Assembly (NCBI GenBank): GCA_964486505.1
Contig: CAZAMC010000002.1
Coordinates: 129,656-193,655 of the forward strand
Reading direction: 5' to 3'
Source of the DNA: an uncultured Gammaproteobacteria bacterium
GTDB lineage: Bacteria > Patescibacteriota > Patescibacteriia > PEXW01
DNA length: 64,000 nt
The first letter of the stretch is position 1, and each line of letters opens with the position of its first letter. The notes beneath the pieces are model-generated. The model saw only the letters and a program-made list of their open reading frames with translations, was not told where the DNA came from and did no database searches. The translations under genes were made by a program, and so were the position numbers. Positions 1-58,788 of the stretch are shown here, piece after piece.

Positions 1-79
1 ACAGCCTCGGCGACGGCATTGACGGGTTTTGCCTCTCTCTGCTACGCTGTGTAGTAGATTTAGCAACTGGAGAAATTCT

Positions 80-457
80 ATGGCAAAGCGCGCAATTCCT
101 GGGTTTGGTGAGCTGGAGACGGCTATCCTTGAGGTCGTGTGGCAGAGCCACCCGATTGCGGTTCGGGATGTGCTGGCCAAGCTGAATCGCGGTTGCGCGT
201 ACACCACAATTATGACCGTCATGCAGCGCTTATTTGATAAGGGCGTGCTGCGGCGGACCCTGGTGGATAATGCGTACCAGTACGAGCCGGCGCAACCGAA
301 AGCCGAGTTTGTGCAACGAACGATTCGTTCGACGGTGGACCAACTTGTCTCCGGTTTTGGTGATGTGGCCCTCGCGCACTTTGTGGATGCCCTAGATGAC
401 GTAGACCCCAGGCGTGTAGAGAAACTTCGCCGTACCCTGCGAAAGCATGAAAAGTAG
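80..457 (+). CDS. BlaI/MecI/CopY-family winged-helix transcriptional repressor
   Basis: ORF 29..457, internal Met MAKRAIPGFGELETAILEVVW... is the typical penicillinase-repressor N-terminus. There is no C-terminal CxC metal-binding motif of CopY. The stop overlaps the start of the next gene. Confidence 0.75.
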   Translation: MAKRAIPGFGELETAILEVVWQSHPIAVRDVLAKLNRGCAYTTIMTVMQRLFDKGVLRRTLVDNAYQYEPAQPKAEFVQRTIRSTVDQLVSGFGDVALAHFVDALDDVDPRRVEKLRRTLRKHEK

Positions 458-1400
458 CCGCGTCCTCATGTTCATGGGCGGTGGCAGTGCTGCGCTGATG
501 ATTGGGGCGAGCGTGGTGTTGGCATTCCTCTGGCCCCACGTCGTGAGTACCCTGAGCAATGCGCTACACGCGGTTACCTACGCCTGCCAAGCGGTGTGGC
601 AAGATCTGACACGCGCGCAGTTAGCCTTCGCCAGCCTGAGCGCTGGTGCACTGTTGGGTTTTTTGAGTTGGGTTGGCTACACGGCGTTCCGCGCAATTCG
701 CCTGTCGAAGCGGCTCGCATTTCCCCGACAAGAAGTTCCCGTGCGCGTGCTCTCCATTGCCGCCGACGCGGGCCTCGATCCTAGTCGTTTAACCGTTGTG
801 CAGGACGCGCGGGCATTTGCCATGACGACGGGTGTGCGTTGGCCAGAAGTCTTCCTCTCCACTGCGGCGCTCCGGACCCTTTCCCAGGCCCAGCTCCGGG
901 CCGTCCTTGAGCACGAAGCGCACCACGTCCGCGAGCGTGAACCCCTGCGTCGGCTTGTCCTGGCGCTCGCTTTGCTGTGGGTTCCGTTCCGGCGGTTACG
1001 GGATTACCTCCGGAATAACTACGTGACGGCTTCGGAACTCGAAGCCGATGAGCGCGTGCATGATCAGCACGTGCTGGGGGCCGCGCTCTTGCGCCTCGTT
1101 GCCCCGCCAATAGCGGCCGCTGGTTTTAGCCCGCTTGATGCTCGGGTGGAGCGCCTGGTGAATCCAGCATTCCGCCATACCGGGAAACCCGCGCTGCGCT
1201 TTGCACTGCTTGCTGTGGTCGCCGTGGTCGGGCTCGCCGTGCTGGCTCCGCATGCCATTGCCACGGTGTACGGCGGGCACCCCTCGTCTACCATGGCCGC
1301 CCACCTCGACATGTGCCGTGTGGAGCACGAGCGCATGCTGCAGTCACGAGAAGGGTCGTGCGGGCAGTTTTCCACCCCGCAAACTTGTGCCACGAAGTAG
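447..1400 (+). CDS. BlaR1/MecR1-like M56 zinc metallopeptidase, membrane-bound, lacking the penicillin-binding sensor domain; Cys/His-rich C-terminal tail
   Basis: N-terminal TM helices, HEAHHVRE (HEXXH) motif, 317 aa versus about 585 aa for true BlaR1. C-terminal tail ...HLDMCRVEHERMLQSREGSCGQFSTPQTCATK. Translationally coupled to the BlaI-like gene. Confidence 0.65.
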   Translation: MKSSRVLMFMGGGSAALMIGASVVLAFLWPHVVSTLSNALHAVTYACQAVWQDLTRAQLAFASLSAGALLGFLSWVGYTAFRAIRLSKRLAFPRQEVPVRVLSIAADAGLDPSRLTVVQDARAFAMTTGVRWPEVFLSTAALRTLSQAQLRAVLEHEAHHVREREPLRRLVLALALLWVPFRRLRDYLRNNYVTASELEADERVHDQHVLGAALLRLVAPPIAAAGFSPLDARVERLVNPAFRHTGKPALRFALLAVVAVVGLAVLAPHAIATVYGGHPSSTMAAHLDMCRVEHERMLQSREGSCGQFSTPQTCATK

Positions 1401-1401
1401 C

Positions 1402-2826
1402 ATGCGCACACCCGACGGCCAAGTCCTCCTCGATATCCAGACCAGCGGCATGCACTGCCGGAGCTGTGAGTTGTTGGTTGAGCAGTCTATTCAGAAGCTC
1501 CCCGGCGTTGGCAAGGTGCAAGCGAATGCCGATCGCAATCGGGTTCGCGTACTCTGTGACCAGCAGCACGTGCCCACGCCTCAGCAGATTGGCGAAGCCA
1601 TAAAACCGCACGGGTACACAGTGGTCACTGGTGTGGTCCAGCCAGCAGGCGCGCCAACAGCCAAGCGCCACCCAGGTACCCAAGCCGCAGAGCACCGTGA
1701 GCGTCCGACCGTTGCTCAAATTGCCGGCGCCTTCACTATCGTACTCGTTATTGGCTTTGCTCTCTCGAAGGCCGGGTTCTTGCAATTTAATCAAGCCGTG
1801 GATGGTTCAGCGGGGTTCCTGAGTGTTCTGTTCCTGGGCTTGGTAGCCGCAAGCAGCTCCTGCGTTGCCGTCGCTGGGGGATTGCTCCTCTCCACAGTAG
1901 AGCGCGTGAGTGATCGCTACGGTTTGCTTCCCGGCAAGCAGCGTTTCGTACCCGTCGGCACTTTCGTGGCGGGCCGAATTGTTGGGTACACCGTATTCGG
2001 TGCCCTCATTGCCGGGTTGGGGAAAGCCTTGGCGCTGCCGCCGTGGGCTACTGGCCTTATCACAATTTTGGCCGCGCTTTTCATGCTCGTCATGGGGTTG
2101 GACATGCTTCGCATTGCGCCAACGTGGTTGAAGGTCATCTTGCCCCGGATGCCGAAATTCATTAGCCGCAGAGTGATGAGCGGCGGAGAAGCAGGCAAGG
2201 TGAGCTACGCCACGCCATTCACCTTGGGAGCGCTGACATTCTTCTTGCCCTGTGGGTTTACGCAGGCGTTGCAGCTCTACGTCCTGACCACGGGTAATGT
2301 GGTAGCTGGCGCCCTTACGATGCTCGCCTTCTCTCTCGGTACTGCCCCGGCGCTCTTGGCGCTCGGTTGGGCGTCGAATGCACTGAAGGGTAAGTGGGGG
2401 AAGCTGTTCTTCCGCGTTGCGGGCGCGGCCGTCATTGTCATGGGGCTGTACAACTTCAACAACGGCCTCACGCTTACTGGGCATCCCGTGTCATTCAATT
2501 TTGGTACGGGCAAAGACGCTGCTCCCGTGGCGACGGTTGAGAACGTTGTTCTCGAGGGTGGCGTGCAGGTTGTGAAGACTGCATTCACATCCTCGGGGTA
2601 CTCGCCAGAAACATTTACCGTTGAAGCGGGTAAGCCGGTACGGTGGGAGATTGATGGTAACGGGAATGCAGGCGGGTGCCGCTCGGTCTTTCAGGTGCCG
2701 GCCTTCAAGATCCAGAAATTCATGAGTAATGGATTGACCGTCGCGGAATTCACTCCTGATAAACCCGGTACCTACGCGTTTAGTTGCAGCATGGGCATGT
2801 ATCGGGGGAGTTTTACCGTCATTTAG
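1402..2826 (+). CDS. Fusion protein: HMA metal-binding domain + polytopic membrane domain (DsbD_2/CcdA-like, Cys in two TM helices) + C-terminal cupredoxin-like domain
   Basis: ATG at 1402 immediately after the blaR1-like stop. GMHCRSCE (MxCxxC-type HMA). TM segments with ...ASSSCVAVAGG... and ...FFLPCGFTQA.... C-terminal FSCSMGMYRGSFTVI paralogous to the ORF at 3087. Confidence 0.6.
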   Translation: MRTPDGQVLLDIQTSGMHCRSCELLVEQSIQKLPGVGKVQANADRNRVRVLCDQQHVPTPQQIGEAIKPHGYTVVTGVVQPAGAPTAKRHPGTQAAEHRERPTVAQIAGAFTIVLVIGFALSKAGFLQFNQAVDGSAGFLSVLFLGLVAASSSCVAVAGGLLLSTVERVSDRYGLLPGKQRFVPVGTFVAGRIVGYTVFGALIAGLGKALALPPWATGLITILAALFMLVMGLDMLRIAPTWLKVILPRMPKFISRRVMSGGEAGKVSYATPFTLGALTFFLPCGFTQALQLYVLTTGNVVAGALTMLAFSLGTAPALLALGWASNALKGKWGKLFFRVAGAAVIVMGLYNFNNGLTLTGHPVSFNFGTGKDAAPVATVENVVLEGGVQVVKTAFTSSGYSPETFTVEAGKPVRWEIDGNGNAGGCRSVFQVPAFKIQKFMSNGLTVAEFTPDKPGTYAFSCSMGMYRGSFTVI

Positions 2827-2831
2827 CCAGT

Positions 2832-3029
2832 ATGCAAACGCAGACTCTCCCCCTCAAGAACATGGACTGCGACGCCTGCGAGCGCCTGGTAACCTTGACC
2901 TTGGCCGAACAGCCAGGTGTTCACAAAGTGCAGGCGAATCAGCGCGAAGTTGAGGTTACGTTTGATGAGCAGACGACCTCACCCGACGTGCTGCGCAGTG
3001 CCCTCGACGGCATTGGTCACGCTGCATAG
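2832..3029 (+). CDS. copZ: CopZ-like heavy-metal-associated copper chaperone
   Basis: MQTQTLPLKNMDCDACERLVTL...: MxCxxC motif, about 65 aa ferredoxin-like HMA fold. Confidence 0.7.
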   Translation: MQTQTLPLKNMDCDACERLVTLTLAEQPGVHKVQANQREVEVTFDEQTTSPDVLRSALDGIGHAA

Positions 3030-3086
3030 CCAAATCGCGCCGCCTGGGCTGCGGCAAGGCCTGGCAGATTTTTTCACCCCCGATAG

Positions 3087-3461
3087 ATGCTCACTATGAT
3101 CATCCTTGGCATCATTCTCATTATTCTCATCATCGGCCTCCTCGGGCTGTGGTTGCGCTCGCAACATCAGCAGGAAGCAGCAGTGGTGAACGCCACGGGT
3201 GCGCAGGAGGCAACCATTATCGTCAAAGGCGCATACCAACCGAACGTCGTCACGGTCCAGGCTGGAAAACCGGTTGTTCTCACCTTCGATCGGCAGGAAG
3301 ACGCGGAATGTTCACGGTTCGTTACCATTGACCGCGTGCACATCCGCCAGGATTTGCCCGCGCACCAGAAGACAGCCATTCGCTTCACTCCAGAGAAGCC
3401 TGGCGAATACTCTTTCACTTGCGACATGGGCATGTATCAGGGCCGCCTCATCGTCCAGTAG
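3087..3461 (+). CDS. Membrane-anchored cupredoxin-like protein (putative Cu(I)-binding)
   Basis: N-terminal TM helix, then ...AECSRFV...[15 protein letters not shown], paralogous to the C-terminus of the 1402..2826 protein. Confidence 0.55.
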
Positions 3462-3462
3462 T

Positions 3463-5661
3463 ATGGCTACCTGCGATCTATCCTTGAAGGGCATGCACTG
3501 TGCTTCGTGCAGTCAGCTCATTGAGCTTGCCTTGCGCAAGACCAAAGGCGTTGCCAGCGCCAACGTGAACGTGGCCACGGAGCGTGCGCACGTGGAGTAC
3601 GATGCGAGCGTTGTTGGCGTGCCCGCACTAGAAGCGGCCGTGAAGAAGGTAGGCTACGGCGCGCAGGAGCTGACAGCCGGGGGCGCTGATACCGAGCGGG
3701 CCGAACGGGACAAGGACATGGCCACAACGAAGCGAAAGTTTTTCGTTGCTTTGGCGCTCTCCATTCCCGTCGCCCTCCTGAGCATGGGCATGTACCTAGT
3801 GCCTGCCATTGAGGAGGTTCCGGGCCGGGCCTGGTTGCAGCTGGTGCTCACCACGCCGGTTATGCTCTGGTGCGGCTGGCAGTTTTTCACCGGCTTCTGG
3901 GGCGCGCTGCGAGCACGCACCGCGAACATGGATTCACTCATCGCCCTTGGCACGGGCGCGGCCTTTGTGTATTCCGTATTCGTTACGGTCGGACTCGTAG
4001 ACGGTGAGCTGTACTTCGAGATTGCCGCCATCCTCATTATGTTCGTATTGCTCGGTAAGTGGCTGGAGGCACGAGCAAAAGGCAAGGCGAGCGATGCAAT
4101 CCGAAGTTTGATGCAGCTGCAGGCCAAGACGGCTATTGTCGTGCGGGCTGGGCAGGATGTGGAGGTGCCTATTGAGCAGGTGGTGGCTGGCGACGTTGTG
4201 CGCGTGAAGCCGGGCCAGAAAGTGCCGGTGGATGGCAAAGTGCTAGATGGCCACAGCAGCGTGGACGAGAGCATGGTGACCGGTGAAAGTTTGCCCGTCG
4301 AGAAGCAAGCGGGCGACATCGTTATCGGCAGCACCATAAACGGCAGTGGCAGTTTTACCTTCACGGCCACGAAAGTTGGGAGCGAGACGCTGCTCGCGGG
4401 CATCATTAAGCTGGTTGAACAAGCGCAAGCCAGCAAAGCGCCCATCCAACGCTTTGCGGATCGCGTATCGGCGTACTTCGTGCCCACGGTCATTGCCATT
4501 GCTCTCATCACATTCGTTGCGTGGTACTTTCTGGCGGGCGAGACGTTTGTGGTGAGCCTCCTCAAGTTCGTTGCCGTCCTGGTTATCGCCTGCCCGTGCG
4601 CGCTGGGGCTGGCCACGCCCACAGCGATCATTACCGGCACAGGCTTAGGCGCGCAGAAGGGGATCCTCATTAAAGGTGGTGAGGCGCTGGAAGCCGCGCG
4701 GAAAATTGACGTGGTGGTGTTCGATAAGACCGGCACGCTCACGCACGGCAAGCCGGTGGTGACAGACGTCGTGTCTTTTGATTCAGCGCTTTCTCAGGAC
4801 AGGCTCCTCCAACTCGGGGCCGCCGTAGAACAGCGGTCCGAGCACCCGCTCGCTGCTGCAATTGTGCAGAGCGCGAAAGCGAAGGGGCGCGCGTTAGCCG
4901 AACCGCAGGACTTCCAGAGCGTGACGGGGAAAGGCGTGTCGGCAACTGTAGAAAGGCAGAAGCTCCTGCTCGGTAACCGGGCGCTGTTCGCAGAAGCGAA
5001 GGTATCACTCGGCAGCCACGAAAGCGATATTGCCGTGCTCGAGCGCCAAGGCAAGACCGTTATGCTCATTGCCGTAGACGGTCGGTTCGCCGGTATTATT
5101 GCCGTTGCCGATACCGTGAAGCAGTCGTCCAAGCAGACCGTAGACGCGCTCGCCAAGCTTGGCATTCAGTCTGTTATGATCACGGGTGATAATGAGCGCA
5201 CGGCCCAGGCCATTGCGCAGCAGGTTGGCATTGCGGAAGTGCGGGCGCAAGTATTGCCGCATCACAAGTCCGCGGCGGTCAAAGACCTGCAAGCCCGGGG
5301 CAAACGCGTGGCGTTCGTGGGTGACGGCGTCAACGACGCGCCCGCGCTCGCGCAAGCGGAGCTCGGCATTGCCATTGGCAGCGGCACCGACGTGGCTCTG
5401 GAAACTGGCCAAATCGTCCTCGTGCGAGATGACCTCATGGATGTCGTGCGTGCTATAACCTTGGCACGCCGAACGTTTCGGAAAATAGTTCAGAACTTGT
5501 TCTGGGCGCTGTTCTACAACGTCGCCGGTATTCCCATTGCGGCCGGCGTCTTCGCGGGCATCGGCCTCACCTTGCGGCCAGAGCTCGCGGGGTTGGCTAT
5601 GGCCCTGTCCAGTGTTTCTGTGGTGAGTAATTCGCTCCTCCTCAAGCGCACCCGGTTGTAA
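3463..5661 (+). CDS. copA: Copper-translocating P1B-type ATPase
   Basis: ATG at 3463 ([17 protein letters not shown], an HMA domain), CPC motif ACPCALG, DKTGTLT phosphorylation site, [10 protein letters not shown] hinge. 732 aa. Confidence 0.9.
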
Positions 5662-5666
5662 AAGCA

Positions 5667-5694
5667 AAAGGGAGATCGGGTGATCTCCCTTTTT
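5667..5694. terminator. Bidirectional rho-independent terminator between convergent copA and the AsnRS-like gene
   Basis: Perfect hairpin aaagggagatc-gggt-gatctcccttt followed by TTTT; A-rich on the other side. Confidence 0.7.
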
Positions 5695-5702
5695 GGAAAG
5701 AA

Positions 5703-6743
5703 CTAGTACAGCAGCTCCCGATTTGAGGGCAGGACGACAACCTTGGTGATGTCCGGTTCCGCCAGCAGGTACTGGAAGATGCGGGACATGCCAAAGCCAC
5801 AGCCGGCGTGCGGCACGGACGGGAACTGTTCGAGCATGCCCAGGTACCAGGCAAAGCCCTCTTCGGCGTAAGTGTCCTTCTCCTTGAGACGGGCGAACAT
5901 GGGTGAGGCGAACAGGCGCTCCCGGAACTCATTTGCCGTGTGCACGCGCGCCGCCGAGCCAATGCACTCGCCGCCGAACGGCACAATGCAGTCGCAGCTC
6001 TGTACGTAGTCGGGGTCCTCCGGATCCGGCTGCATGTTGAAGAACTTGATCGCCAACTTGTCCGCTTTGTGCGCGAAGAGCAGCTGCATCTTCTCGCTCA
6101 TCGGGTTGGGGTAGTGGGTGATGAAGATCGGCCCGCCCCCGTGGCTGGTCACGAGGAGCTGCTCCTGGCTGGACGAGAGGTCGCTGCCCCACGGCAGGCG
6201 GAGTTCGGCGATAGCGTCGGCGTACCGAATGCGGGGGAAGCGCTCCGGGTGAGCAGCGAGGTGCCCCAGGTTAGCCGGCAAGGCGTAGGCCGGGCGGTCA
6301 TTCTCGGGCACGGCCAGGACGCTGCGCACGAGGGCGGTGACGAACTGCTCCATCTCCTCCAGCAAATCCTGGAACGAGCCGCGGAACTCGATTTCCACCA
6401 TCTCGAATTCGGTCAGGTGCCGCGTATCGATGGTGGCCTCGGCCCGTGCCGAAGGGCCCACGCAGTAGAGCTTGGGCAAACCACCTTCGCCCAGGAGCGA
6501 CTCCAGGTAGAGCTGGCCAGTCTGGGCAAAGTACGAGCGTTTCCGGCCGCCGTGGAACCAGCGCGGGTCGCCGTTCACGGTGATTTCGAACAGCGTGTCG
6601 ACATTCTCACAGGCACCGCTGGCGGGCACAATGCGCGGTACGGTCACGCGGTAGAAGCCGCGTTCGCGCAAGTGCGCTTCACCCGCCTGCATGAGCCGAT
6701 CGACGAATCGAATAGTGCCGAAGTTCGGCGTGTAGAAACCCAT
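5703..6743 (-). CDS. AsnRS-like catalytic-core protein without anticodon-binding domain (AsnA-type asparagine synthetase, or truncated AsnRS paralog)
   Basis: Class II aaRS motif 2 DTRHLTEFEMVEIEF (AsnRS-type RHLxEFxMxE), motif 3 GCGFGMSRIFQYLL. 346 aa, no N-terminal OB-fold domain. Confidence 0.55.
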   Translation of the reverse strand: MGFYTPNFGTIRFVDRLMQAGEAHLRERGFYRVTVPRIVPASGACENVDTLFEITVNGDPRWFHGGRKRSYFAQTGQLYLESLLGEGGLPKLYCVGPSARAEATIDTRHLTEFEMVEIEFRGSFQDLLEEMEQFVTALVRSVLAVPENDRPAYALPANLGHLAAHPERFPRIRYADAIAELRLPWGSDLSSSQEQLLVTSHGGGPIFITHYPNPMSEKMQLLFAHKADKLAIKFFNMQPDPEDPDYVQSCDCIVPFGGECIGSAARVHTANEFRERLFASPMFARLKEKDTYAEEGFAWYLGMLEQFPSVPHAGCGFGMSRIFQYLLAEPDITKVVVLPSNRELLY

Positions 6744-6804
6744 GTGTTCCTCCTTTGGATTTACGGGTTTTTCATGAACGTTGTGGGGGTTGTTGTTGGG
6801 GTAT

Positions 6805-6832
6805 TAAAAAACGACCCCGTCAGCGACGGGGG
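6805..6832 (-). terminator. Rho-independent terminator (minus strand) downstream of the small ORF 7023..7235
   Basis: gaccccgtc-agc-gacgggg hairpin with an A-run on the plus strand (U-run on minus). Confidence 0.45.
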
Positions 6833-7022
6833 AGTGGCGAAAAAATACCCGGGGTGTCCCGGGCCGGAGTGGCGTCGAGTTCGGTGGCGCACCTGAGGGT
6901 GACCGAACCGTGCGTGCATACTGTGCAGGAGCGTACTCGCTTGAGATGTGCTTGTCAAATGCTCATGAAGAACAGGCAGCGCGGGCTGCCTGTCTGTAAA
7001 GGTCTTGAACGTACATGGTCGT

Positions 7023-7235
7023 TCACCCGTTTGCTCGCCAGATGGTCGGCCGCGCTTTGCGGATCTGGAGCTGGCTCGCTCGCCAGCGGATGCTGTATGC
7101 AGTCCGCTTCAGTTTGCGTTCCAGCCACTTCGTGGGCATGTGCCGGTAGTACTTCCGTAGCACCGCCTCCTCACGCTTGGTCCAGGCCTTCTGGCCACGG
7201 GTAAAGGTATTGCGTTTCGTACGGATTTTACGCAC
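7023..7235 (-). CDS. Small basic hypothetical protein (70 aa)
   Basis: ORF with a downstream minus-strand terminator; very basic (K/R-rich). No recognisable family. Confidence 0.3.
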   Translation of the reverse strand: MRKIRTKRNTFTRGQKAWTKREEAVLRKYYRHMPTKWLERKLKRTAYSIRWRASQLQIRKARPTIWRANG

Positions 7236-7312
7236 CTCAGGTGCCTCCTCAGTTATGAGTATTGGTTTGAGTTTCGGTCTACCTTAAAACGTTGCCTCCC
7301 ACCTGTCAACCA

Positions 7313-7340
7313 TTGACAAAATTCGCCTTTCCGGTATACT
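7313..7340 (+). promoter_or_regulatory. Sigma70-type promoter (TTGACA -16 nt- TATACT)
   Basis: TTGACA at about 7313..7318, 16-nt spacer, TATACT at about 7335..7340. Confidence 0.55.
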
Positions 7341-7433
7341 CAGCTTCGTAAGATTTTCGTCAGCGTGTATCCCAAAACCTGCCCCGTAATGGGGTCAGTA
7401 TAGCTGCTACCAGCGCTATAGGAGGACTGCCAG

Positions 7434-7467
7434 ACGAGAAGAGGTCGACTTACATTCTCGTTTTTTT
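7434..7467 (+). terminator. Intrinsic terminator/attenuator hairpin 19 nt upstream of the RRM gene start
   Basis: acgagaa-[14 nt loop containing gtcgac]-ttctcgt followed by TTTTTTT. Confidence 0.5.
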
Positions 7468-7485
7468 CGATAGATTTTGAAAACA

Positions 7486-7788
7486 ATGGCAAAGAAACTC
7501 TACGTCGGTGGTCTTCCGTACGCGACAACCCAAGAAGAGCTTGGCGAAGCATTCGCTCAGGCTGGGAAGGTCGAGTCCGCAATCATCATCACCGACAAAA
7601 TGTCTGGTCGCTCGAAGGGCTTTGGATTCGTGGAAATGGCCACGGACGAAGATGCTCAGAAGGCGATTGAGATGTTCAACGGCAAAGACTTCAGCGGTCG
7701 CACGCTTACGGTAAACGAAGCGCGCCCCATGGAGCCTCGCGCCCCGCGCGGTGGAAATGGTGGATTCGGCGGCGGTCGCAGCTGGTAA
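7486..7788 (+). CDS. RRM-type RNA-binding protein (RNP-1/RNP-2 motifs) with Gly-rich tail
   Basis: LYVGGL (RNP-2), KGFGFVEM (RNP-1), C-terminal RGGNGGFGGGRSW. Confidence 0.85.
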   Translation: MAKKLYVGGLPYATTQEELGEAFAQAGKVESAIIITDKMSGRSKGFGFVEMATDEDAQKAIEMFNGKDFSGRTLTVNEARPMEPRAPRGGNGGFGGGRSW

Positions 7789-7856
7789 GCATTCCTCAAG
7801 AATCGAAATCAGTCTCACATGTGTGGGGCTGATTTTCGTTGTGCTAAACTACAGGC

Positions 7857-8609
7857 ATGGTTGAGCAGGATGAGCAGCGCAATCCTTCGCCATTGGCACA
7901 GCGGCATTGGTTTAAACCCATGCTCCTCCTGCTGGTGCTTTTTCTCGTGGTTTTCGTCGTTACGGTCATTGTGGTTGATACGCATCGGGTGAAGAAGGCC
8001 ACAGACCCGCTCGCTGAGCTCACCGCGGGGAGCGCCGCTCAGTCAAGTGTTGGGACGCTGCCGAGTGTCAACCGATCTGTAAACCCACAGCTTGAGACTG
8101 CCGACGATCCTGCCCTCGGTCCGGCCGGGGCACCCGTGGTTGTCGTCATGTTCATCGATTTCCAGTGTCCGTACTGCCGCCAAATGTTCCCGGCCTTTCG
8201 CGAACTTGCTGTAGCGTACAGTAATCGCGTGCGTTTCATTGTGCGGGATTTTCCCGTCACGCAGCTGCATGCGGAAGCGCAAGCCGCCTCCGAAGCGGCG
8301 GGCTGTATCTACGAGCTTGGTGGTAATGACAAGTTCTGGGCATACCATGACAAGCTCTACCTAAACCAAGACGCTCTTGGAACGTCCACGTACCGCACGC
8401 TTGCCACGCAAGTAGGTGTAGAGGATCAGGCTTTTACCGCCTGCGTCGAGAGTGGCCGTACGAAGACAGAAGTAGATCAAGACTTCCTCGACGGCATAGC
8501 GCTGGGCGTTACCGGCACCCCCACTTTCTTCTTCAACGGGTATCGGGTGCAGGGCGTGATTGCGAAGGACAAATTTGCAAAAGTGCTCGATCTGCTGTTA
8601 GCCGAGTAG
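7857..8609 (+). CDS. DsbA-like thioredoxin-fold thiol:disulfide oxidoreductase, membrane-anchored (paralog 1)
   Basis: N-terminal TM helix; active site FQCPYCRQ. Confidence 0.75.
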   Translation: MVEQDEQRNPSPLAQRHWFKPMLLLLVLFLVVFVVTVIVVDTHRVKKATDPLAELTAGSAAQSSVGTLPSVNRSVNPQLETADDPALGPAGAPVVVVMFIDFQCPYCRQMFPAFRELAVAYSNRVRFIVRDFPVTQLHAEAQAASEAAGCIYELGGNDKFWAYHDKLYLNQDALGTSTYRTLATQVGVEDQAFTACVESGRTKTEVDQDFLDGIALGVTGTPTFFFNGYRVQGVIAKDKFAKVLDLLLAE

Positions 8610-8635
8610 CGCAAGGGCTGTGGTATACTACGACT

Positions 8636-9082
8636 ATGCTTGTCTTGGGCGCTGATCACGGAGGCTTCGCGCTGAAAGAGTACCTCAAGCACGCGCTTGT
8701 GAAGCGCGGTGTTCATATTGAAGACTTAGGGCCAACGCGCCGAACCCCCGGCGATGACTACCCGTTGATTGCATCGGCAATTTCTCGGCACGTGCGGCGG
8801 ACAACCGGGAGTCGGGGCGTGCTCCTGTGCGGGAGTGGCATTGGCATGTCGGTGGTGGCAAATAAGCACGCTGGCATTCGCGCCGCACTGGTGTGGAGTG
8901 AGAAAGTTGCAGTGCGCAGCCGTCAAGAAGAAGACGCGAATATCCTGGTTTTGCCCGCGCATTTCTTGTCCCGCGCGGCAGCGCTTCGCATTGTTGAGGT
9001 ATGGCTGAAGACGCCGTTCAAGCGCATCCCGCGCTACCGGCGCCGACTTGGCGAAATCGCCCGCATTGAACATAGCGCGTAG
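8636..9082 (+). CDS. rpiB: Ribose-5-phosphate isomerase B
   Basis: MLVLGADHGGFALKEYL...LLCGSGIGMSVVANK: RpiB/LacAB family. Confidence 0.85.
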   Translation: MLVLGADHGGFALKEYLKHALVKRGVHIEDLGPTRRTPGDDYPLIASAISRHVRRTTGSRGVLLCGSGIGMSVVANKHAGIRAALVWSEKVAVRSRQEEDANILVLPAHFLSRAAALRIVEVWLKTPFKRIPRYRRRLGEIARIEHSA

Positions 9083-9085
9083 CGT

Positions 9086-9706
9086 ATGCTTGTTACCCCG
9101 GCTATTCTCGAGACCGATGCAAACGCCCTGAAAGAAAAAGTGAGCCGCATTGAGGCGCACGTGGACCTCGTGCAGATTGACGTGGGCGATGGCCAATTCA
9201 TCCCGACCATCACCGTTCTCCCTCGAGCGCTCGGCGAGTTCCGCCCCCTCACCGCGTTTGAGGTGCACCTCATGGTACAACGCCCGGATCGGTTCATTGC
9301 CGACTGGGCCCACCTCGGCGCATCCAAGGCTATCTTCCACGTTGAAGCGGAAGGTGACCTGGAGCGCTTCATTGCCCAGTGCCGTGACCTCGATTGTGAT
9401 GTGGGCATCGCTCGAAATCCAGGTACCAGTGTGGAAAAGCTGCAGCCGTTCCTAGACTTGGTGGACGAGGTGATGTTCATGACTATTCAGCCCGGAGCGC
9501 AGGGGAACCCATTCCTGCCCGAGGTACTCGAGGATATTCAGGCTTTTCACAAAGCGTTCCCGAGTGTGTCCTTGGCCGTCGATGGCGGTGTGAACCCCCA
9601 AAATCTCAAAGCCCTGCAGGCCGCGGGTGTTCAGCGGGTGTGCGTTGGGAGCACCTTGTGGAAGAGCGCGGATCCACTCGCAACGCTCCAGAAACTGTCT
9701 GCCTAA
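9086..9706 (+). CDS. rpe: Ribulose-phosphate 3-epimerase family protein
   Basis: TIM-barrel Rpe-like: PAILETD...DVGDGQFIP...HLMV...DGGV. Confidence 0.7.
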   Translation: MLVTPAILETDANALKEKVSRIEAHVDLVQIDVGDGQFIPTITVLPRALGEFRPLTAFEVHLMVQRPDRFIADWAHLGASKAIFHVEAEGDLERFIAQCRDLDCDVGIARNPGTSVEKLQPFLDLVDEVMFMTIQPGAQGNPFLPEVLEDIQAFHKAFPSVSLAVDGGVNPQNLKALQAAGVQRVCVGSTLWKSADPLATLQKLSA

Positions 9707-9709
9707 ACT

Positions 9710-10681
9710 ATGCAAACTTTCGATGTCATTACAGTAGGGAGTGCCACGCAGGACGTGTACCTCTTTGCGCCGGGTTTGCGCGCGCAGCGGGATAGCCGTT
9801 CAACCACCGGGTCATCTATCCGGATTCCGGCCGGTGCGAAGATTGAGATTGAGCGCCTCCTCGTTGAAGTCGGCGGTGGCGCAACCAATGCCGCGGCGAC
9901 CTTTCAGCGTTTGGGCCTGCGCACCGCCTGCGCCTGTAAGGTGGGCACCGACGCGGCCGGCGATCATGTCATTCGTACGTTGAAAGAGTTTGGCGTGAGC
10001 ACGCGCTTCGTTGTGCGCGACTATGACGACCCCACCGCCACCTCCGTGCTCTTCCTACACGATCGGGGGGAGCGAACTGCACTCGTGAGCCGGGGCGCCA
10101 GCGCGGATCTCGCTACCCGCATGGTGCCATGGAGTCAGCTGCGCACCAAGTGGTTCTACGTGTCTTCCCTCGGCGGAAACGCGGGTTTTCTGCGGCGCAT
10201 TTTTGCCCATGCCCAGCGCGTGGGCGCTAAGGTCGCTCTCAATCCTGGGAAAGCAGAGCTTCGCCAAAAGCAACTAGCGCCCGTGCTCCGGAAGGCCGAC
10301 GTGCTCCTGCTCAACCGTGAAGAAGCAGAATCTTTCTTCCGACGAAAAGGCCCGCGTCTGCTGCCCGCCGTGGCGGCTTGGCGGAAGGGCCTCGTGGTCA
10401 TCACCGACGCAGACCGTGGTTCCTACGCCGTGAGCTCAGCTGGCGCCATGCGCATGCGGATAAAACCAGTCCGCGCTATAGACACGACCGGCGCTGGTGA
10501 CGCCTTTGGATCCGGCTTTATTTCGGCTTTCGTCCGCCGACCGAACGACATTGGCGCCGCCCTCCGCCTCGGCTCTATTAATAGCGCATCGGTCGTACAA
10601 CAGGTTGGCGCCAAGCACGGCCTCATTAACCGCCGCCTGCCCCGGGGGCCTTGGATGCGGTTGCAGCGCGTTCGTCTCTAA
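9710..10681 (+). CDS. PfkB-family carbohydrate kinase (ribokinase-like)
   Basis: GGGATNAA...DTTGAGDAFGSGFI ribokinase signature. Confidence 0.75.
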   Translation: MQTFDVITVGSATQDVYLFAPGLRAQRDSRSTTGSSIRIPAGAKIEIERLLVEVGGGATNAAATFQRLGLRTACACKVGTDAAGDHVIRTLKEFGVSTRFVVRDYDDPTATSVLFLHDRGERTALVSRGASADLATRMVPWSQLRTKWFYVSSLGGNAGFLRRIFAHAQRVGAKVALNPGKAELRQKQLAPVLRKADVLLLNREEAESFFRRKGPRLLPAVAAWRKGLVVITDADRGSYAVSSAGAMRMRIKPVRAIDTTGAGDAFGSGFISAFVRRPNDIGAALRLGSINSASVVQQVGAKHGLINRRLPRGPWMRLQRVRL

Positions 10682-10702
10682 GGGATTGCATAGTTCTACA
10701 GG

Positions 10703-10734
10703 GTGTAGTAGTATGACTCTACACTTCTCTTTTT
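10703..10734 (+). terminator. Rho-independent terminator after the pfkB-like gene
   Basis: gtgtag-[10 nt]-ctacac followed by ttctcttttt. Confidence 0.45.
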
Positions 10735-10748
10735 AGCCCACGTTTCCT

Positions 10749-11519
10749 ATGGACAATCAGACTTGGCAAAGCGCTCCAAGCGGTGATCCAAACTCCAGCA
10801 TCTTCAACGCACCGCCCAAGATGACCTTCGCCTTAGGGGTAATGGTTGGCATTAGCGCGATTAGTCTTTTTGGTTTCATTTGGTCATTCAGCGCTTACCG
10901 CAACGCCGTTGATGGGGGGACCACCAAAAAAACGGCCACCACGAATACCAATACCACAGCCACGAACACGGCTGTGGACACTGCACCTACCGGACCAATC
11001 GACGTGGCCGTTGCCAACGATGACTGGTCTGACGGTAAGTCCGATGCCAAAGTGACGTTGGTGGAGTTCAGCGATTTTGAGTGTCCCTACTGCAGCCGCT
11101 TCCAGCCCGTCATTGAACAAGTCATGACGGACTACAAAGATCAGGTACGGCTCGTCTACAAGCACTACCCACTCACGAGCATTCACCCGAATGCCCAGAA
11201 GGCCGCGGAAGCCGCCGAGTGTGCCGGCGACCAGGACAAGTTTTGGGAAATGCATGACAAGTTGTTTGCTAATCAGTCCAGCCTGTCGGTTACGAGCTAC
11301 AAAGCCTGGGCCAAGGAGCTGGGCTTGAATGAGAAGAAGTTTGCGACCTGCATAGATAACAGCGAAAAGGCGAATGACGTGAAGTCTGATCAAACGTACG
11401 GTGACAGCATTGGGGTGCAGGGCACGCCGTCGACGTTCGTGAACGGTTACCTCGTCTCAGGTGCCCAGAGCTACGACTACGTGAAGAACCTCATCGACCA
11501 GGAGCTCGCCAAGACCTAA
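10749..11519 (+). CDS. DsbA-like thioredoxin-fold protein, membrane-anchored (paralog 2), N/T-rich linker
   Basis: TM helix, TKKTATTNTNTTATNT low-complexity linker, FECPYCSRF active site. Confidence 0.75.
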   Translation: MDNQTWQSAPSGDPNSSIFNAPPKMTFALGVMVGISAISLFGFIWSFSAYRNAVDGGTTKKTATTNTNTTATNTAVDTAPTGPIDVAVANDDWSDGKSDAKVTLVEFSDFECPYCSRFQPVIEQVMTDYKDQVRLVYKHYPLTSIHPNAQKAAEAAECAGDQDKFWEMHDKLFANQSSLSVTSYKAWAKELGLNEKKFATCIDNSEKANDVKSDQTYGDSIGVQGTPSTFVNGYLVSGAQSYDYVKNLIDQELAKT

Positions 11520-11529
11520 CGTACTTTCC

Positions 11530-12321
11530 ATGTTTGGGTGGCTCACGCACACCCCGCCGGATCCCATCCTCCTTCACGTTGGGGGGTTTTCGGTGCGGTG
11601 GTACGGGGTGATTCTGGCTCTGGCGCTTGTGGCTGGCATTCTCTTAGCCCAGCGTTTAAGCCGGCGCGGACCAGTACGTCCGGAAGACATTGCCGATCTG
11701 GCAATTGTTGTTACCCTGGCGGCAGTTGTGGGGGCCCGCGTAGTGCACGTCTTGGATGAGTGGGGGTACTACGCGCGCCACCTCGGGGAAATCCCGCAAT
11801 TCTGGCGGGGTGGCCTGGCATTCCATGGCGTGCTCCTGGGTGGCATCCTGGCTCTCTGGTTGTTCAGTCGTCGCCGCAAGCTCGCTCCCATCCTCCTCCT
11901 CGACCTCAGCTTCCCGGCCCTCGCGCTGGGGCAGGTGATTGGCCGCTGGGGGAACTGGATAAACCAAGAGCTGTACGGGGAGCCGTCGACGCTCCCGTGG
12001 GCAATCCCGATTGCCCCAGAGAACCGAGTTGCTGAGTACGCGTCGGCGACCAACTTCCACCCGCTCTTCCTCTATGAGTCGCTCGGGAATGCACTCATAC
12101 TGGTACTCCTCCTGCTCCTCTGGCGGTGGCGCGGGCGGCGCCCCGGCGACATCAGCGCGGCCTACCTCATCTTCTCGCCCCTATTACGGTTTAGTCTCGA
12201 TTTCCTTCGGCTCAATCAACCCATGGTTGGGCCAATCACGAACGCGCAACTCTTTAGCTTGCCGCTTGTGGCCGCGGGCCTCATACTCCTAGTAACCCGC
12301 GGGCGACGCTCTCCTCACTAA
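11530..12321 (+). CDS. lgt: Prolipoprotein diacylglyceryl transferase
   Basis: GRWGNWINQELYG signature (Lgt G-x-GN-x-N-x-E motif), 7 TM. Confidence 0.8.
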   Translation: MFGWLTHTPPDPILLHVGGFSVRWYGVILALALVAGILLAQRLSRRGPVRPEDIADLAIVVTLAAVVGARVVHVLDEWGYYARHLGEIPQFWRGGLAFHGVLLGGILALWLFSRRRKLAPILLLDLSFPALALGQVIGRWGNWINQELYGEPSTLPWAIPIAPENRVAEYASATNFHPLFLYESLGNALILVLLLLLWRWRGRRPGDISAAYLIFSPLLRFSLDFLRLNQPMVGPITNAQLFSLPLVAAGLILLVTRGRRSPH

Positions 12322-12331
12322 CGTCACTTCT

Positions 12332-12958
12332 ATGGCGCAGACACGATTTCGTTGGGGCCTCTGGGGCAGCATCCTCGGCATCATTGTCATTGCCGCCGTT
12401 GCTTTTGCATTTACCCGGGGCTCAGGCGTGACCTACGACAACCCGAATAGCCCGCGACCCTTTGCTGGCACGGCTGCTGCTAAGGTCGTTGTTCAGGAGT
12501 ACAGCGATTTCCAGTGCCCAGCCTGCGGTTCTGCATACCCGTACGTGAAGAGCTTGGTGCAGAAGTACGCGAATGACATTCGCTTTGAGTTCAAGCACTA
12601 CCCGCTGACCAAGATACACGCGAACGCCTACAATGCCGCGCTCGCCAGTGAGTGCGCAAACGACCAAAGCAAATTTTGGGAATACCACGACAAGCTCTTC
12701 GAGAATCAGTCGCAGCTGAGTATCGGGAGCCTCAAGCAGTACGCAGCCGATCTTAGCCTCGATGCCACAAAGTTCAATGCGTGCATGGACTCCCGAGCGG
12801 AGAAACCGCTTGTGGATGCCGACATGAAAGCCGGCGACGGTTTGAAGGTGCCCGGCACGCCCACGTTCTTCGTCAATGACACCATGGTTGCCACGGGTGA
12901 TTTGGAGACAGCCATAAAAGCCGCGATTGGTGGGGCGGTCCAGGGCCCCGTGCGCTAG
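12332..12958 (+). CDS. DsbA-like thioredoxin-fold protein, membrane-anchored (paralog 3)
   Basis: TM helix; FQCPACGSAYPYV. Confidence 0.75.
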   Translation: MAQTRFRWGLWGSILGIIVIAAVAFAFTRGSGVTYDNPNSPRPFAGTAAAKVVVQEYSDFQCPACGSAYPYVKSLVQKYANDIRFEFKHYPLTKIHANAYNAALASECANDQSKFWEYHDKLFENQSQLSIGSLKQYAADLSLDATKFNACMDSRAEKPLVDADMKAGDGLKVPGTPTFFVNDTMVATGDLETAIKAAIGGAVQGPVR

Positions 12959-13509
12959 CGCGTTGAGACGAAGAGCAGAACCCCAGCGAGTACGGCCTGC
13001 AGGGCTAAGCCGACTTTGAAGGTGAGGCGTTTTTCTACGTACGCGTGGAACCAGTGGTGCAGCCGCTCGTGGTGGTTGAAGAGTGATTCGAGGCGCGTAA
13101 CGTCCTGGATAATTTTTCGGGCCTGTGGGAAGTGCCGCATGAGGAAATTGCGGTACGCATCGTAGAATGCCCACATGAGGTCGGGGAGGACGGCGCCAAT
13201 GATGGCCGCGAGAGCAACGTTTGGCAGTGGCCAGTCGCCGGTTACGTGCACGGTGTACACGAAGAGTGCGAGGAAGCTAATGTCGGTGAAGAAGGTGAGC
13301 GCGAAGCGCCGGAGGAATTTTTCTTTCACCCAGGCCCCAAGACGCTCGTCGCCGTGGGGGATCATATCCAGGATGTAGTGGGAGAGCAATCCAAGCCCAA
13401 AAGCCACTGGCACGCTATGGACGTGCTGGCTGATGATAATGCCCGCCAGGGCGTGGGTCGAGAGGAACATGCTGGTGTATAGCGTACTAGACACTTCAGG
13501 GGTAGTCAA
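12955..13509 (-). CDS. Membrane-bound metal-dependent hydrolase (YdjM/DUF457-like)
   Basis: Polytopic membrane protein; HYILDMIPHGDE motif. Confidence 0.5.
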   Translation of the reverse strand: MTTPEVSSTLYTSMFLSTHALAGIIISQHVHSVPVAFGLGLLSHYILDMIPHGDERLGAWVKEKFLRRFALTFFTDISFLALFVYTVHVTGDWPLPNVALAAIIGAVLPDLMWAFYDAYRNFLMRHFPQARKIIQDVTRLESLFNHHERLHHWFHAYVEKRLTFKVGLALQAVLAGVLLFVSTR

Positions 13510-13589
13510 AATAGGTTGACAGTGCCGCGAACATTGCGTATGCTAGGCACGCTCCAAAGGGAAAGGGCAATTTGTAATCTGGAGCACTA

Positions 13590-13661
13590 TGCGGGATGGA
13601 GCAGTAGCAGCTCGCCGGGCTCATAATCCGGAGGTCGGGGGTGCAAATCCCCCTCCCGCAC
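13590..13661 (+). tRNA. tRNA-Met (anticodon CAU), CCA encoded; initiator-like anticodon stem but U1-A72
   Basis: Acceptor tgcggga/tcccgca, D-arm gagc-agtagca-gctc, anticodon loop cuCAUaa at 13622..13624, T-arm ggggg-tgcaaat-ccccc, then c-CCA. Confidence 0.85.
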
Positions 13662-13774
13662 CCAACGCGAGTTTTCGGCAACACCGCGAACTTACGATTC
13701 CAAAAGAAGCCGTAGAGCCAGTGCCAGCAAGCGAGATGGTATTCTGGCTGTACGGCTTCTGTCGTTAACAACGT

Positions 13775-13848
13775 GCCAGGGTAGCTCAGTTGGTTAGAGC
13801 GTGGGACTCATAAGCCCAAGGTCGTGGGTTCAAATCCCACCCCTGGTA
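13775..13848 (+). tRNA. tRNA with CAU anticodon (elongator Met or lysidine-modified Ile2), CCA encoded
   Basis: gccaggg acceptor, D-arm TAGCTCAGTTGGTTAGAGC, anticodon CAT at 13809..13811, T-arm gtggg-ttcaaat-cccac, a-CCA. Confidence 0.85.
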
Positions 13849-13852
13849 CCAG

Positions 13853-13936
13853 GCCGGGATGGCGGAACTGGTAGACGCACAGGACTCAAAATCCTGCGAT
13901 CGCAAGGTCATGAGAGTTCGATTCTCTCTCCCGGCA
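13853..13936 (+). tRNA. tRNA-Leu (CAA), type II long variable arm, CCA encoded
   Basis: gccggga...tcccggc acceptor, anticodon loop cuCAAaa, long variable arm gcgatcgcaaggtcatgag, a-CCA. Confidence 0.85.
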
Positions 13937-14041
13937 CCAGCTCGTTTCTCATGTCGAGCTTCGCGCGACGCGGCTTTATCGCATCTCACTTCATCCTTCG
14001 GGCGAAGCCCCGCTTGACGCCACGCTGCCCGTGGGGTAGGA

Positions 14042-50665: not shown

Positions 50666-51613
50666 ATGCGGTACCAAACGTCCACGCGCGTGCAGCAGTT
50701 GCAAGCGCAGTTCCCTGAACTCCAACACATCATCCCGCGCTTCAAGCGTGGCGATGGTCCGCAGCACCGTATTCGCATCCTGGTGCAGCGGGCCGATCCG
50801 GCCTTCTTGTACACGTATGCAGAGACGGCAGATGGCGAGCGCAGCCACTGTGAGCCGTTGCCGAAAGAAACGCATCTGCAGGGTTGCATCGCTACGCGTT
50901 ACAAGCACCTGTTCTTCGTCTTGCCGGATGGCACGATCGACAGCCAGGTTACCTGGGAAGACTTCCACGCGTCGTACTGCATTGATTTTCTGCGTAAGCG
51001 GAAACACTTGCTGCCGACGCTGAGTCGGGTGGTCGTGCTCGCCGTGCTCACGTGGTACAAGCGGCAGGACCCGCTTACTACCATGAGTTACCTCGGTGCG
51101 TACCAGAGCACTGATCTGGAGATCACCATCCACCAAGCGCCGACGTGCGGGTGGTCGGAACTCGTCGCCACCACAGACTTGAGCAAGAACGTACCGATGG
51201 GCTTTCGGGATCTCATCGTCGCGGGTTGCCGCTACGAGCGCCCAGACGTGAGACGCTACAATGACGCGCTCACGGAGATTGCTACGCTGTTTAGCACCCA
51301 GGTATACGCCAATGGTTTGAAGACGCTCATTGACGCGTCGAAAATCGCGGGTATGTCCGGTATGTTCAACGGCGTGGAGCTCATGAGTTGGGTTTCCGCG
51401 GGGCGCATTCCCATGACGGTGCAGCGCGGGAACATTGATGTAACGTTCAAATCCCTCGAAGGCGAGTACTACGAGGCCGGTGTGCACAGCATGCACGGGA
51501 CGGTAGAGGAAGTACGCGCGCTCGTGAACGACCTGGTTGCTGGCTGGACGGCGCTCTCGCAGGAGCAGCGCGCTAGCCAGTATAAGGACAACAAGAACGT
51601 CAGCATGTTCTGA
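50666..51613 (+). CDS. Hypothetical protein (315 aa), no recognisable domain
   Basis: ATG at 50666 preceded by a strong SD AAAGGAGGT. TTGACA-17-TACATT promoter-like at about 50537..50565. Confidence 0.5.
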   Translation: MRYQTSTRVQQLQAQFPELQHIIPRFKRGDGPQHRIRILVQRADPAFLYTYAETADGERSHCEPLPKETHLQGCIATRYKHLFFVLPDGTIDSQVTWEDFHASYCIDFLRKRKHLLPTLSRVVVLAVLTWYKRQDPLTTMSYLGAYQSTDLEITIHQAPTCGWSELVATTDLSKNVPMGFRDLIVAGCRYERPDVRRYNDALTEIATLFSTQVYANGLKTLIDASKIAGMSGMFNGVELMSWVSAGRIPMTVQRGNIDVTFKSLEGEYYEAGVHSMHGTVEEVRALVNDLVAGWTALSQEQRASQYKDNKNVSMF

Positions 51614-58667: not shown

Positions 58668-58788
58668 CAGGGCCTTCAGCAATTCTTCAGGTACGGGTAT
58701 TACCGTTGTCTGCACATGTCACCGTTGCTTTGCCTACTACACGGTGTGGTATACTTGCTCGTGACGCTCGCATTTATGTGAACGCCAT

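Follow-up and report, generated by a model that had tools for sequence, protein, structure and literature searches.

A BlaI-family repressor and a sensor-less membrane protease as a candidate copper switch in a Patescibacteria genome

How is a copper export operon regulated when its first gene encodes a repressor of the CopY family that has no CopY-type copper site? This question is raised by a six-gene copper cluster at positions 80 to 5661 of the window, by which we mean the whole 64,000-nucleotide (nt) stretch that we analyzed (positions 129,656 to 193,655 of the forward strand of contig CAZAMC010000002.1, assembly GCA_964486505.1, from an uncultured Patescibacteriota bacterium). The names carried by homologues likewise point to Patescibacteria. 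In the list of open reading frames (ORFs), all six genes are on the plus strand and encode, in order, a BlaI-family repressor, a membrane protease, an HMA-DsbD_2-cupredoxin fusion, a CopZ-type chaperone, a CupA-type chaperone, and the CopA ATPase; each assignment is backed by Pfam or NCBIfam scores. The original prediction, made from the sequence alone, had described six co-directional, tightly packed genes, the first two of them translationally coupled. Both points held up: the genes are separated by -11, 1, 5, 57, and 1 nt, and the repressor stop codon (455-457) lies inside the start region of the protease gene (ATG at 447), an overlap of 11 nt.

We propose that the first two genes form a proteolytic switch of the BlaI/BlaR1 (PetR/PetP) kind, and we give this mechanism as a whole a probability of about 0.6. 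With no signal present, a dimer of the repressor would sit on dyads of 7-5-7 geometry that overlap promoter elements and would repress its own six-gene operon, a DsbA-like gene with lgt, and probably htrA. Its partner would be a three-helix membrane gluzincin whose catalytic domain is cytoplasmic, while a loop cysteine (C47) and a 48-residue tail carrying H286, C290, H294, C305, and C314 would face outward, at the position of the penicillin-binding domain of BlaR1. Extracellular copper would act on this Cys/His module, through either coordination or copper-catalyzed thiol oxidation, and its action would activate the protease. The protease would then cut the repressor near the H100-F101 bond in the dimerization domain, the cut repressor would leave the DNA, and copper export and envelope protein repair would be induced. 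We consider it very likely that repressor and protease together function as a switch at the cop promoter. That copper is the physiological inducer, directly or via thiol damage, is probable; direct binding of copper by the loop and tail is plausible but somewhat doubtful. Taken together, the original observation stands and is extended, and the original interpretation, a BlaR1-style route repurposed for copper, gains partial support.

A conserved pair and its operators

We compared the locus with 10 related places in Patescibacteria, seven of them genome loci and three found via more divergent homologues. The core of repressor, protease, and DsbD_2/cupredoxin protein is present at all 10 places, at a protease identity of 39 to 72%, and the junction between repressor and protease overlaps or abuts in each. 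The CopA ATPase is found in all nine places that reach far enough; the contig of the remaining locus (L097) ends earlier. The shared order is a phosphorylase, the repressor, the protease, the HMA-DsbD_2-cupredoxin fusion, optionally CopZ and CupA, and then CopA, and a DsbA gene lies near the switch operon in the related places. Thus, the anatomy originally predicted, a BlaI/BlaR1-type pair at the head of a copper operon, recurs in every relative examined.

The repressor gene (80-457, plus strand; 125 residues) has a GGAG at 69-72 ahead of its ATG. The hidden Markov model search that had been proposed for it gave 83.1 bits to Penicillinase_R (PF03965) against a cut-off of 22.6, over residues 10 to 121, which places the protein in a family with a winged-helix domain and a helical dimerization domain. 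The closest solved structure is Mycobacterium tuberculosis BlaI (2g9w; E 4e-11), and further relatives in the PDB are 1okr and 1sd4.

Because the repressor shares the Pfam family of CopY and occupies the copY position of the Streptococcus pneumoniae copY-cupA-copA operon, one explanation is that it senses copper itself, as CopY does, and that the protease is inactive or not regulatory. However, a search for CxCxxxxCxC in the repressor and its orthologues found none, nor any C-terminal cysteine. The CopY_TcrY equivalog model (TIGR02698) scored 30.2 bits against a cut-off of 121.95. The only cysteine, C39, lies in the DNA-binding domain and is replaced by Ser in one orthologue, and the protein has neither a conserved Cys nor a conserved His/Met cluster. 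The claim that the CopY metal site is missing was therefore correct, and we rejected CopY-like direct sensing on these grounds; the sequence supports the conclusion that the repressor cannot sense copper in the fashion of CopY. Moreover, the protease keeps all its catalytic residues and is translationally coupled to the repressor in every relative, and in the related cyanobacterial system, DNA binding by PetR is unaffected by copper (bioRxiv 10.1101/2020.07.31.226407). We regard direct sensing by the repressor as very improbable.

Does the repressor resemble a substrate of such a protease? We aligned it with the BlaI, MecI, and PetR sequences from the supplement of the PetRP paper (identity to PetR, 25 to 28%). 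In this alignment F101 corresponds to the Phe of the BlaI/MecI cleavage site, which lies between N101 and F102, and it is invariant in this Patescibacteria clade as well as in PetR, BlaI, and MecI. The residue before it is His in the repressor, Ala in PetR, and Asn in BlaI and MecI. Six of the seven clade members examined share the block GDVALAHFVDALD around F101 unchanged, and the seventh (L007) has a single Leu-to-Ile change. The H100-F101 bond is a candidate cleavage site.

We then turn to the DNA on which the repressor would act. The -35 hexamer of the operon promoter is TTGACG (19-24, plus strand), of which TTGAC is invariant in seven aligned upstream regions. About 14 to 15 bp beyond it is the cop operator, CTGCTAC-GCTGT-GTAGTAG, a 7-5-7 dyad at 39-57. 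Its half-sites are identical in all nine loci with readable operator DNA (the window, L001 to L005, L007, L096, and L097), in which its spacing to the -35 hexamer is constant as well, and the intergenic DNA outside the -35 hexamer and the half-sites has diverged. The left half-site overlaps the -10 hexamer TACGCT (43-48), which reads TACGCT or TACACT across loci. A CTAC-N5-GTAG dyad had been predicted at 42-54; it is present and forms the core of this larger 19-bp dyad. The 13-mer core occurs twice in the 64 kb against 0.33 expected, and the full dyad with at most two mismatches occurs at three sites against 0.31 expected, all of them intergenic. These data support a role of the dyad as an operator that is conserved and overlaps the promoter.

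The second site, GTTCTAC-AGGGT-GTAGTAG (10693-10711), lies between a -35 hexamer (TTGCAT) and a -10 hexamer (TAGTAT) ahead of a gene for a DsbA-like thiol-disulfide oxidoreductase (10749-11519, plus strand; Thioredoxin_4, 106.5 bits; DSBA, 79.6 bits), which is followed after 10 nt by lgt (11530-12321, plus strand; LGT, 229.6 bits). This 19-mer is base-identical in L001, L002, and L006, where the neighboring intergenic DNA has diverged, and the dyad is present in all four readable dsbA loci. The third and weaker site, CTACTAC-ACGGT-GTGGTAT (58734-58752), precedes a gene for an HtrA/DegP-type serine protease with a PDZ domain (58789-60021, plus strand; Trypsin_2, 119.4 bits; PDZ_2, 59.6 bits), a candidate member of the regulon. 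A weaker form of the dyad is found upstream of htrA in four of four loci, and the block CTACTACA-N4-GTGGTATACT is invariant in three orthologous upstream regions whose HtrA proteins are 67 to 78% identical. The site is less certain than the other two because its right half coincides with an extended -10 element (TGgTATACT). In 277 kb of more distant HtrA loci (80 metagenome loci; HtrA at most 57% identical), CTAC-N5-GTAG was not found. Overall, the regulon appears to include the DsbA-like oxidoreductase and lgt as well, and probably HtrA.

Sites were kept only at a score of at least 12 of 14, which left these three and the consensus CT[A/G]CTAC-N5-GTAG[T/C]AG. Lowering the cut-off to 11 of 14 gives eight matches against about four in a restricted shuffle in which one perfect core was required, and the additional copies were dropped. 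A cop-like copy at 51279 was dropped as it falls within a coding ORF.

Two further observations concern these loci. In L002 (885-911), L003 (7609-7635), and L097 (6451-6477), the ATG of the repressor follows the operator by only 2 nt, and therefore the mRNA there would be leaderless or nearly so; in the window the spacer is 22 nt and contains the GGAG. A second DsbA-like paralogue, with a CPYC motif, is encoded nearer the cop operon (7857-8609) and has no dyad upstream. In L096 this type of paralogue lies downstream of copA, after a gene for a 699-residue protein without a Pfam match.

The membrane protease and its outward-facing module

The protease gene (447-1400, plus strand) encodes a membrane gluzincin of the M48/M56 superfamily with 317 residues and the motifs H156-E-x-x-H160 and E197-x-x-x-D201. 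It scores 30.2 bits with Peptidase_M48 (PF01435), above the cut-off of 20.3, and a profile search against the PDB finds HtpX (E 1.4e-4). BlaR1 is the best solved fold match for its transmembrane (TM) and protease regions, and its fold is BlaR1-like. H156-E-A-H-H160 and E197-L-E-A-D201 are invariant in 22 close homologues (39 to 72% identity) and in 131 distant ones. The residues kept in the 22 are H156, E157, H160, S196, E197, E199, A200, and D201, and four cysteines, C47, C290, C305, and C314, are likewise invariant among them.

Where do these cysteines lie? Three TM helices are predicted, at about residues 6 to 28, 59 to 80, and 247 to 268. The first two enclose outer loop 1 (residues 29 to 57; 531-617, plus strand), which has a net negative charge, K/R-rich flanks, and invariant P30, Y45, and C47. 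The third is followed by the C-terminal tail (residues 270 to 317; 1254-1397, plus strand) with H286, C290, H294, C305, and C314. Hydropathy, the positive-inside rule, and the position of the BlaR1 sensor domain together would place the N terminus and the protease domain in the cytoplasm, with loop 1 and the tail on the outer side. In this predicted three-helix topology the tail therefore sits where BlaR1 has its sensor domain. We found no penicillin-binding (transpeptidase-like) domain, and the 48 residues after the last TM helix match no domain. The original prediction of a 317-residue protease lacking such a sensor domain is confirmed, and the Cys/His-rich tail it had quoted is exactly residues 286 to 317.

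The AlphaFold model of the protease, with a predicted local distance difference test score (pLDDT) of 80, has two long N-terminal helices, the protease domain, and a third TM helix at 247 to 275. After this comes a polar helix (280 to 301) in which H286, C290, and H294 are at i, i+4, and i+8 and so share one face. The end of the tail, with C305 and C314, is predicted to be disordered.

Copper or thiol damage as the signal

What would such a module sense? Directly 3' of the protease, in every related place but L097, in which a DsbA gene of the 10749-11519 paralogue type intervenes, is the gene for the fusion of HMA, DsbD_2 (CcdA-like), and Cupredoxin_1 domains (1402-2826, plus strand; 474 residues). 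It is the most constant partner of the switch, and two TM helices of its CcdA-like core each retain a Cys (C154 and C284). In L097 the DsbD_2-cupredoxin protein has no HMA domain, and a small HMA gene comes next. Hydropathy and the positive-inside rule suggest seven TM helices, with the HMA domain inside and the CupA-like C...CxMxM domain outside, although three of the seven predicted helices fall below the hydropathy threshold of 1.5. This layout would suit a relay of Cu(I) or reducing equivalents across the membrane. We know of no characterized example of such a fusion.

The remaining genes encode copper proteins of known kinds. The CopZ-type HMA metallochaperone (2832-3029, plus strand) carries an MDCDAC motif and scores 35.9 bits with Pfam HMA; its best NCBIfam scores, MerP (32.2 bits) and CopZ (31.6 bits), are below the cut-offs. 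The next protein (3087-3461, plus strand; 124 residues) had been called a cupredoxin. It does have a Cupredoxin_1 domain, but it is more exactly a homologue of S. pneumoniae CupA (2mry/4f2e; E 2.3e-13), a membrane-anchored Cu(I) chaperone: the Cys and C-x-M-x-M ligands align, and an N-terminal TM anchor spans residues 3 to 22. CopA (3463-5661, plus strand) is a P1B-1 Cu(I)/Ag(I) exporting ATPase (TIGR01511, 646.9 bits against a cut-off of 397) with the motifs CPC in TM4, N-x6-YN-x4-P, and M-xx-SS-x5-N.

The 57-nt gap between copZ and cupA contains a weak hairpin with a T-run (3044-3073) and sigma-70-like hexamers (3071-3100), which may split the operon into two expression units. In two relatives this gap holds a gene for a 98-residue CsoR/RcnR-family protein (L001, 6161-6489; L004, 10658-10990; Trns_repr_metal, 66.6 bits) that is absent from the window. 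Its fingerprint, H3-C42-H67-H71, is RcnR-like and not the x-C-H-C of CsoR, and the palindrome ATACCCCC(T/A)GGGGGTAT precedes the gene. It would supply cupA-copA with a second regulator, presumably a cytoplasmic one, in these relatives. Thus, the statement that the proteolytic pair stands in for a classical copper sensor is true of the window but not of L001 and L004, which carry a CsoR/RcnR-family gene with an operator of its own. This argues against the pair being a mere replacement for a cytoplasmic sensor; more likely, it reads another compartment or signal.

This bears on the possibility that sensing is cytoplasmic, with CopZ or CupA handing Cu(I) to the protease domain or the repressor and the outer tail being structural only, in parallel to the feeding of CopY by CopZ in Enterococcus. 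Two cytoplasmic Cu(I) chaperones are indeed co-transcribed with the pair, the cytoplasmic domain of the protease averages about 5 His per protein, and PetP functions without a tail. However, that domain averages only 0.5 Cys per protein and has no conserved one, all four invariant cysteines are predicted to be outside, and the repressor offers no conserved Cys or His/Met cluster as an acceptor. Together with the separate cytoplasmic regulator of the close relatives, which suggests that the pair covers a different compartment or signal, this makes cytoplasmic sensing improbable.

The more serious question is whether copper itself is what the outside module detects. Because the regulon appears to hold the DsbA-like oxidoreductase and lgt, and probably HtrA, what the pair senses may be damage that copper causes to the envelope or to thiols, and not the binding of copper alone. 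Taken further, the same switch could use its outward Cys module to report the thiol-disulfide or folding state of the envelope and not to bind copper directly, with copper being just one of several stresses, e.g., via wrong disulfides. This is the main competing explanation, and the breadth of the family is relevant to it. We searched 1.84 billion representatives with a profile of the protease. Only six clusters belong to the tail-bearing subfamily at E <=1e-30, whereas sensor-less relatives form 1,664 clusters at E <=1e-10 and 6,484 at E <=1e-3. Among the 131 distant representatives with the best scores, all keep the catalytic H, E, H, E, and D as well as R233, 128 keep C47, and 110 keep C290; the ranking of these representatives favors sequences that match the Cys columns of the profile. 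H286, H294, C305, C314, and the linkage to copper genes are specific to the copper-linked Patescibacteria clade.

Two cysteines conserved like catalytic residues, in a family whose sampled members are mostly not copper-linked, are what a general envelope sensor would predict, and so are a DsbA-like protein and probably HtrA in the regulon and a CcdA-like DsbD_2 core in the gene after the protease. A distant BlaI/M56 pair from Limnocylindria (L008) fits as well. Its surroundings form a copper island that encodes multicopper oxidases, CsoR-CopA-CopZ, and YHS proteins, and there the same dyad as in the window, in the form CTACTAC-N5-GT.GTAG (4123-4141 and 10155-10173), heads an Amidase_3-Redoxin and a DsbD_TM-Redoxin operon; the operator half-site appears to be conserved across phyla. 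Finally, in two cyanobacteria a Redoxin/AhpC-TSA gene is directly 3' of petP (L098, 3789-4259; L099, 3807-4310), which echoes the thiol-redox neighbors of other sensor-less pairs. However, throughout the subfamily the switch stands at the head of an operon made up mainly of Cu(I)-specific proteins (CopZ, CupA-type domains, and the P1B-1 ATPase), the tail has gained two His and two Cys in this subfamily, and PetP, the sole tested sensor-less relative, needs copper. We consider this competing explanation rather unlikely.

Several points nevertheless weigh against the copper-triggered switch that we favor. By sequence, the M56 assignment of the original prediction holds only at the superfamily level: Peptidase_M56 (PF05569) gives 20.9 bits, below its gathering cut-off of 31, and BlaR1 is a marginal hit in the profile search (E 0.64). 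H286 and H294 occur in at least 90% of the 22 close homologues and are not strictly invariant, and the last 16 residues, including C305 and C314, are modeled at a pLDDT of about 40. The promoter alone may explain why the right half of the htrA site is conserved. The hairpin and hexamers between copZ and cupA, and the CsoR/RcnR gene of the relatives, mean that cupA-copA may be partly under separate control. Copper as the signal is a case of guilt by association, and extracytoplasmic copper sensors usually use His and Met, not Cys. Since a large sensor-less family retains C47 and C290, the pair of cysteines is an old family feature and not copper-specific, and it could be a structural disulfide. 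Only one of three distant contexts sampled is copper-linked (L008), the other two (L011 and L012) not being near copper genes, which makes the copper linkage specific to a subfamily.

The same conservation permits a broader idea. In the best-scoring members of the family, which comprises more than 1,600 clusters, conservation of C47 and C290 is about equal to that of the zinc ligands, and these two cysteines might be a general thiol-based extracytoplasmic sensor shared by the majority of orphan sensor-less BlaR-like proteases. In that case, the Patescibacteria clade would be the first in which genomic context reveals the signal, copper or copper-driven thiol damage, with a Cpx-like output of metal efflux, DsbA, and HtrA. 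If true, organisms with a very small set of regulators would control such an output through regulated proteolysis. We consider this generalization speculative and rather unlikely.

Known systems and the setting of the locus

How new is a copper switch of this kind? The concept already exists: Synechocystis sp. PCC 6803 has a BlaI/BlaR pair that is triggered by copper, PetR/PetP (Garcia-Canas et al., bioRxiv 10.1101/2020.07.31.226407; PNAS 2021), and the system in the window belongs to a known kind. Degradation of PetR requires both PetP and copper, and the operator of PetR is GAC-N5-GTC (bioRxiv 10.1101/2020.07.31.226407). The same authors proposed two loop Met residues as copper ligands of PetP and left the sensing site unresolved; the targets are petE and petJ (the plastocyanin/cytochrome c6 switch) and two small genes, and copper homeostasis genes are stated not to be controlled. 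Reviews of 2023 and 2026 name PetRP as the only copper BlaIR system, and the 2023 review adds that copper homeostasis is outside its control and that heterotrophs have uncharacterized homologues.

The pair in the window resembles PetR/PetP in having a BlaI/CopY-family regulator without the CopY Cys site, an overlapping downstream M48/M56 protease without a penicillin-binding domain, the conserved Phe at the BlaI cleavage position, and a copper context. The dyads share a 3-5-3 geometry, GAC-N5-GTC in PetR and TAC-N5-GTA in the window. We recovered two PetP orthologues (284 to 286 residues) through PetR homologues, and their protease domains are homologous to that of the window (hhalign probability 97%, E 8.5e-11). 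However, they end right after the last TM helix and have neither a loop 1 Cys nor a Cys/His tail. PetP has four TM helices and a conserved Met pair in a short outer loop, whereas the protease of the window has three, a 29-residue loop, and the 48-residue tail. The targets differ as well: a copper export operon, dsbA-lgt, and probably htrA, in the genome of a nonphotosynthetic member of the Patescibacteria. The two systems thus have the logic of the switch in common and differ in sensor module and targets. The module of the window seems to be cysteine-based, unlike that of PetP, and readily testable.

BlaI/BlaR1 and MecI/MecR1 of Staphylococcus aureus and Bacillus licheniformis share with the window the fold and family of the repressor, the order of repressor and then protease, a HEXXH/ExxxD gluzincin between TM helices, and an autoregulated promoter with a dyad operator. 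The window protease differs in its length (317 residues against about 585 to 600), in having no transpeptidase-type sensor, and in its M56 score below threshold; the operator spacing is unlike that of BlaI and MecI, and neither beta-lactamase nor PBP2a is a target. The S. pneumoniae copY-cupA-copA operon, for which Fu et al. in 2013 reportedly presented CupA structures 4f2e and 2mry, is likewise headed by a repressor of the same Pfam family and contains a membrane-anchored CupA and CopA. However, CopY senses Cu(I) directly via a C-terminal CxCxxxxCxC, which is absent here, and S. pneumoniae is not known to have a partner protease.

Similar in layout are the sensor-less BlaIR systems Rv1846c/Rv1845c of M. 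tuberculosis, CenIR of Clostridioides difficile, and PvmSR of Pseudomonas aeruginosa, which pair a BlaI-like repressor with an M56-type protease lacking a transpeptidase domain; Rv1846c is the best solved relative of the repressor in the window. Most BlaR-like proteins have no beta-lactam domain, and their signals are unknown (PMC13492132; bioRxiv 10.64898/2026.08.03.742534). The signals of these three systems are unknown or linked to energy metabolism, lysis, or virulence, and none is reported to control copper export; in contrast, the context of the window points to a likely signal and to residues that may sense it. CenIR resembles the switch of the window in its link to the cell envelope (PMC13492132). 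There is a faint hint that the mycobacterial system responds to copper status: in copper-starved M. tuberculosis without sigC, blaI and genes of the predicted BlaI regulon (atpE and rv1305) are up (PMC7924339).

In the open-access literature, we found neither a BlaIR pair controlling copA nor a report of copper regulation in the Candidate Phyla Radiation (CPR). The switch in the window is the first BlaIR system we could find wired to genes of copper export and envelope repair. PetP is the only such protease with a defined signal, copper, and does not control copper homeostasis. The locus offers a second, independent copper-linked BlaIR system with a sharply defined operator, a small regulon that can be inferred, and a short list of candidate sensing residues open to mutation. 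It would be a rare worked-out regulatory circuit for Patescibacteria (CPR), and it suggests that these bacteria couple copper export to envelope protein repair.

The cluster had also been called an island. In 1-kb bins over positions 1 to 14000, the G+C fraction is even at 0.54 to 0.62, and the flanking genes are syntenic in relatives, where the upstream phosphorylase and the downstream genes recur. Therefore, we rejected horizontal acquisition and regard the cluster as resident.

A short way upstream of the phosphorylase gene, beside SUF/NifU/ferredoxin genes, L096 (7329-7832), L097, and the place designated P0025 encode a plastocyanin/azurin-like blue-copper protein of 165 to 172 residues; the window begins too late to show a counterpart. 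To our knowledge, CPR bacteria have no respiratory chains, which makes a blue-copper protein there unexpected. Downstream of the cluster, the window encodes a class II aminoacyl-tRNA-synthetase-like protein without an anticodon-binding domain, probably of the AsnA type (5703-6743, minus strand; tRNA-synt_2, 124 bits). Judged from its translation without a domain scan, the ORF at 7477-7788 (plus strand) resembles a small RRM-type RNA-binding protein with a Gly-rich tail. Three clustered tRNA genes lie at 13590-13936 (plus strand).

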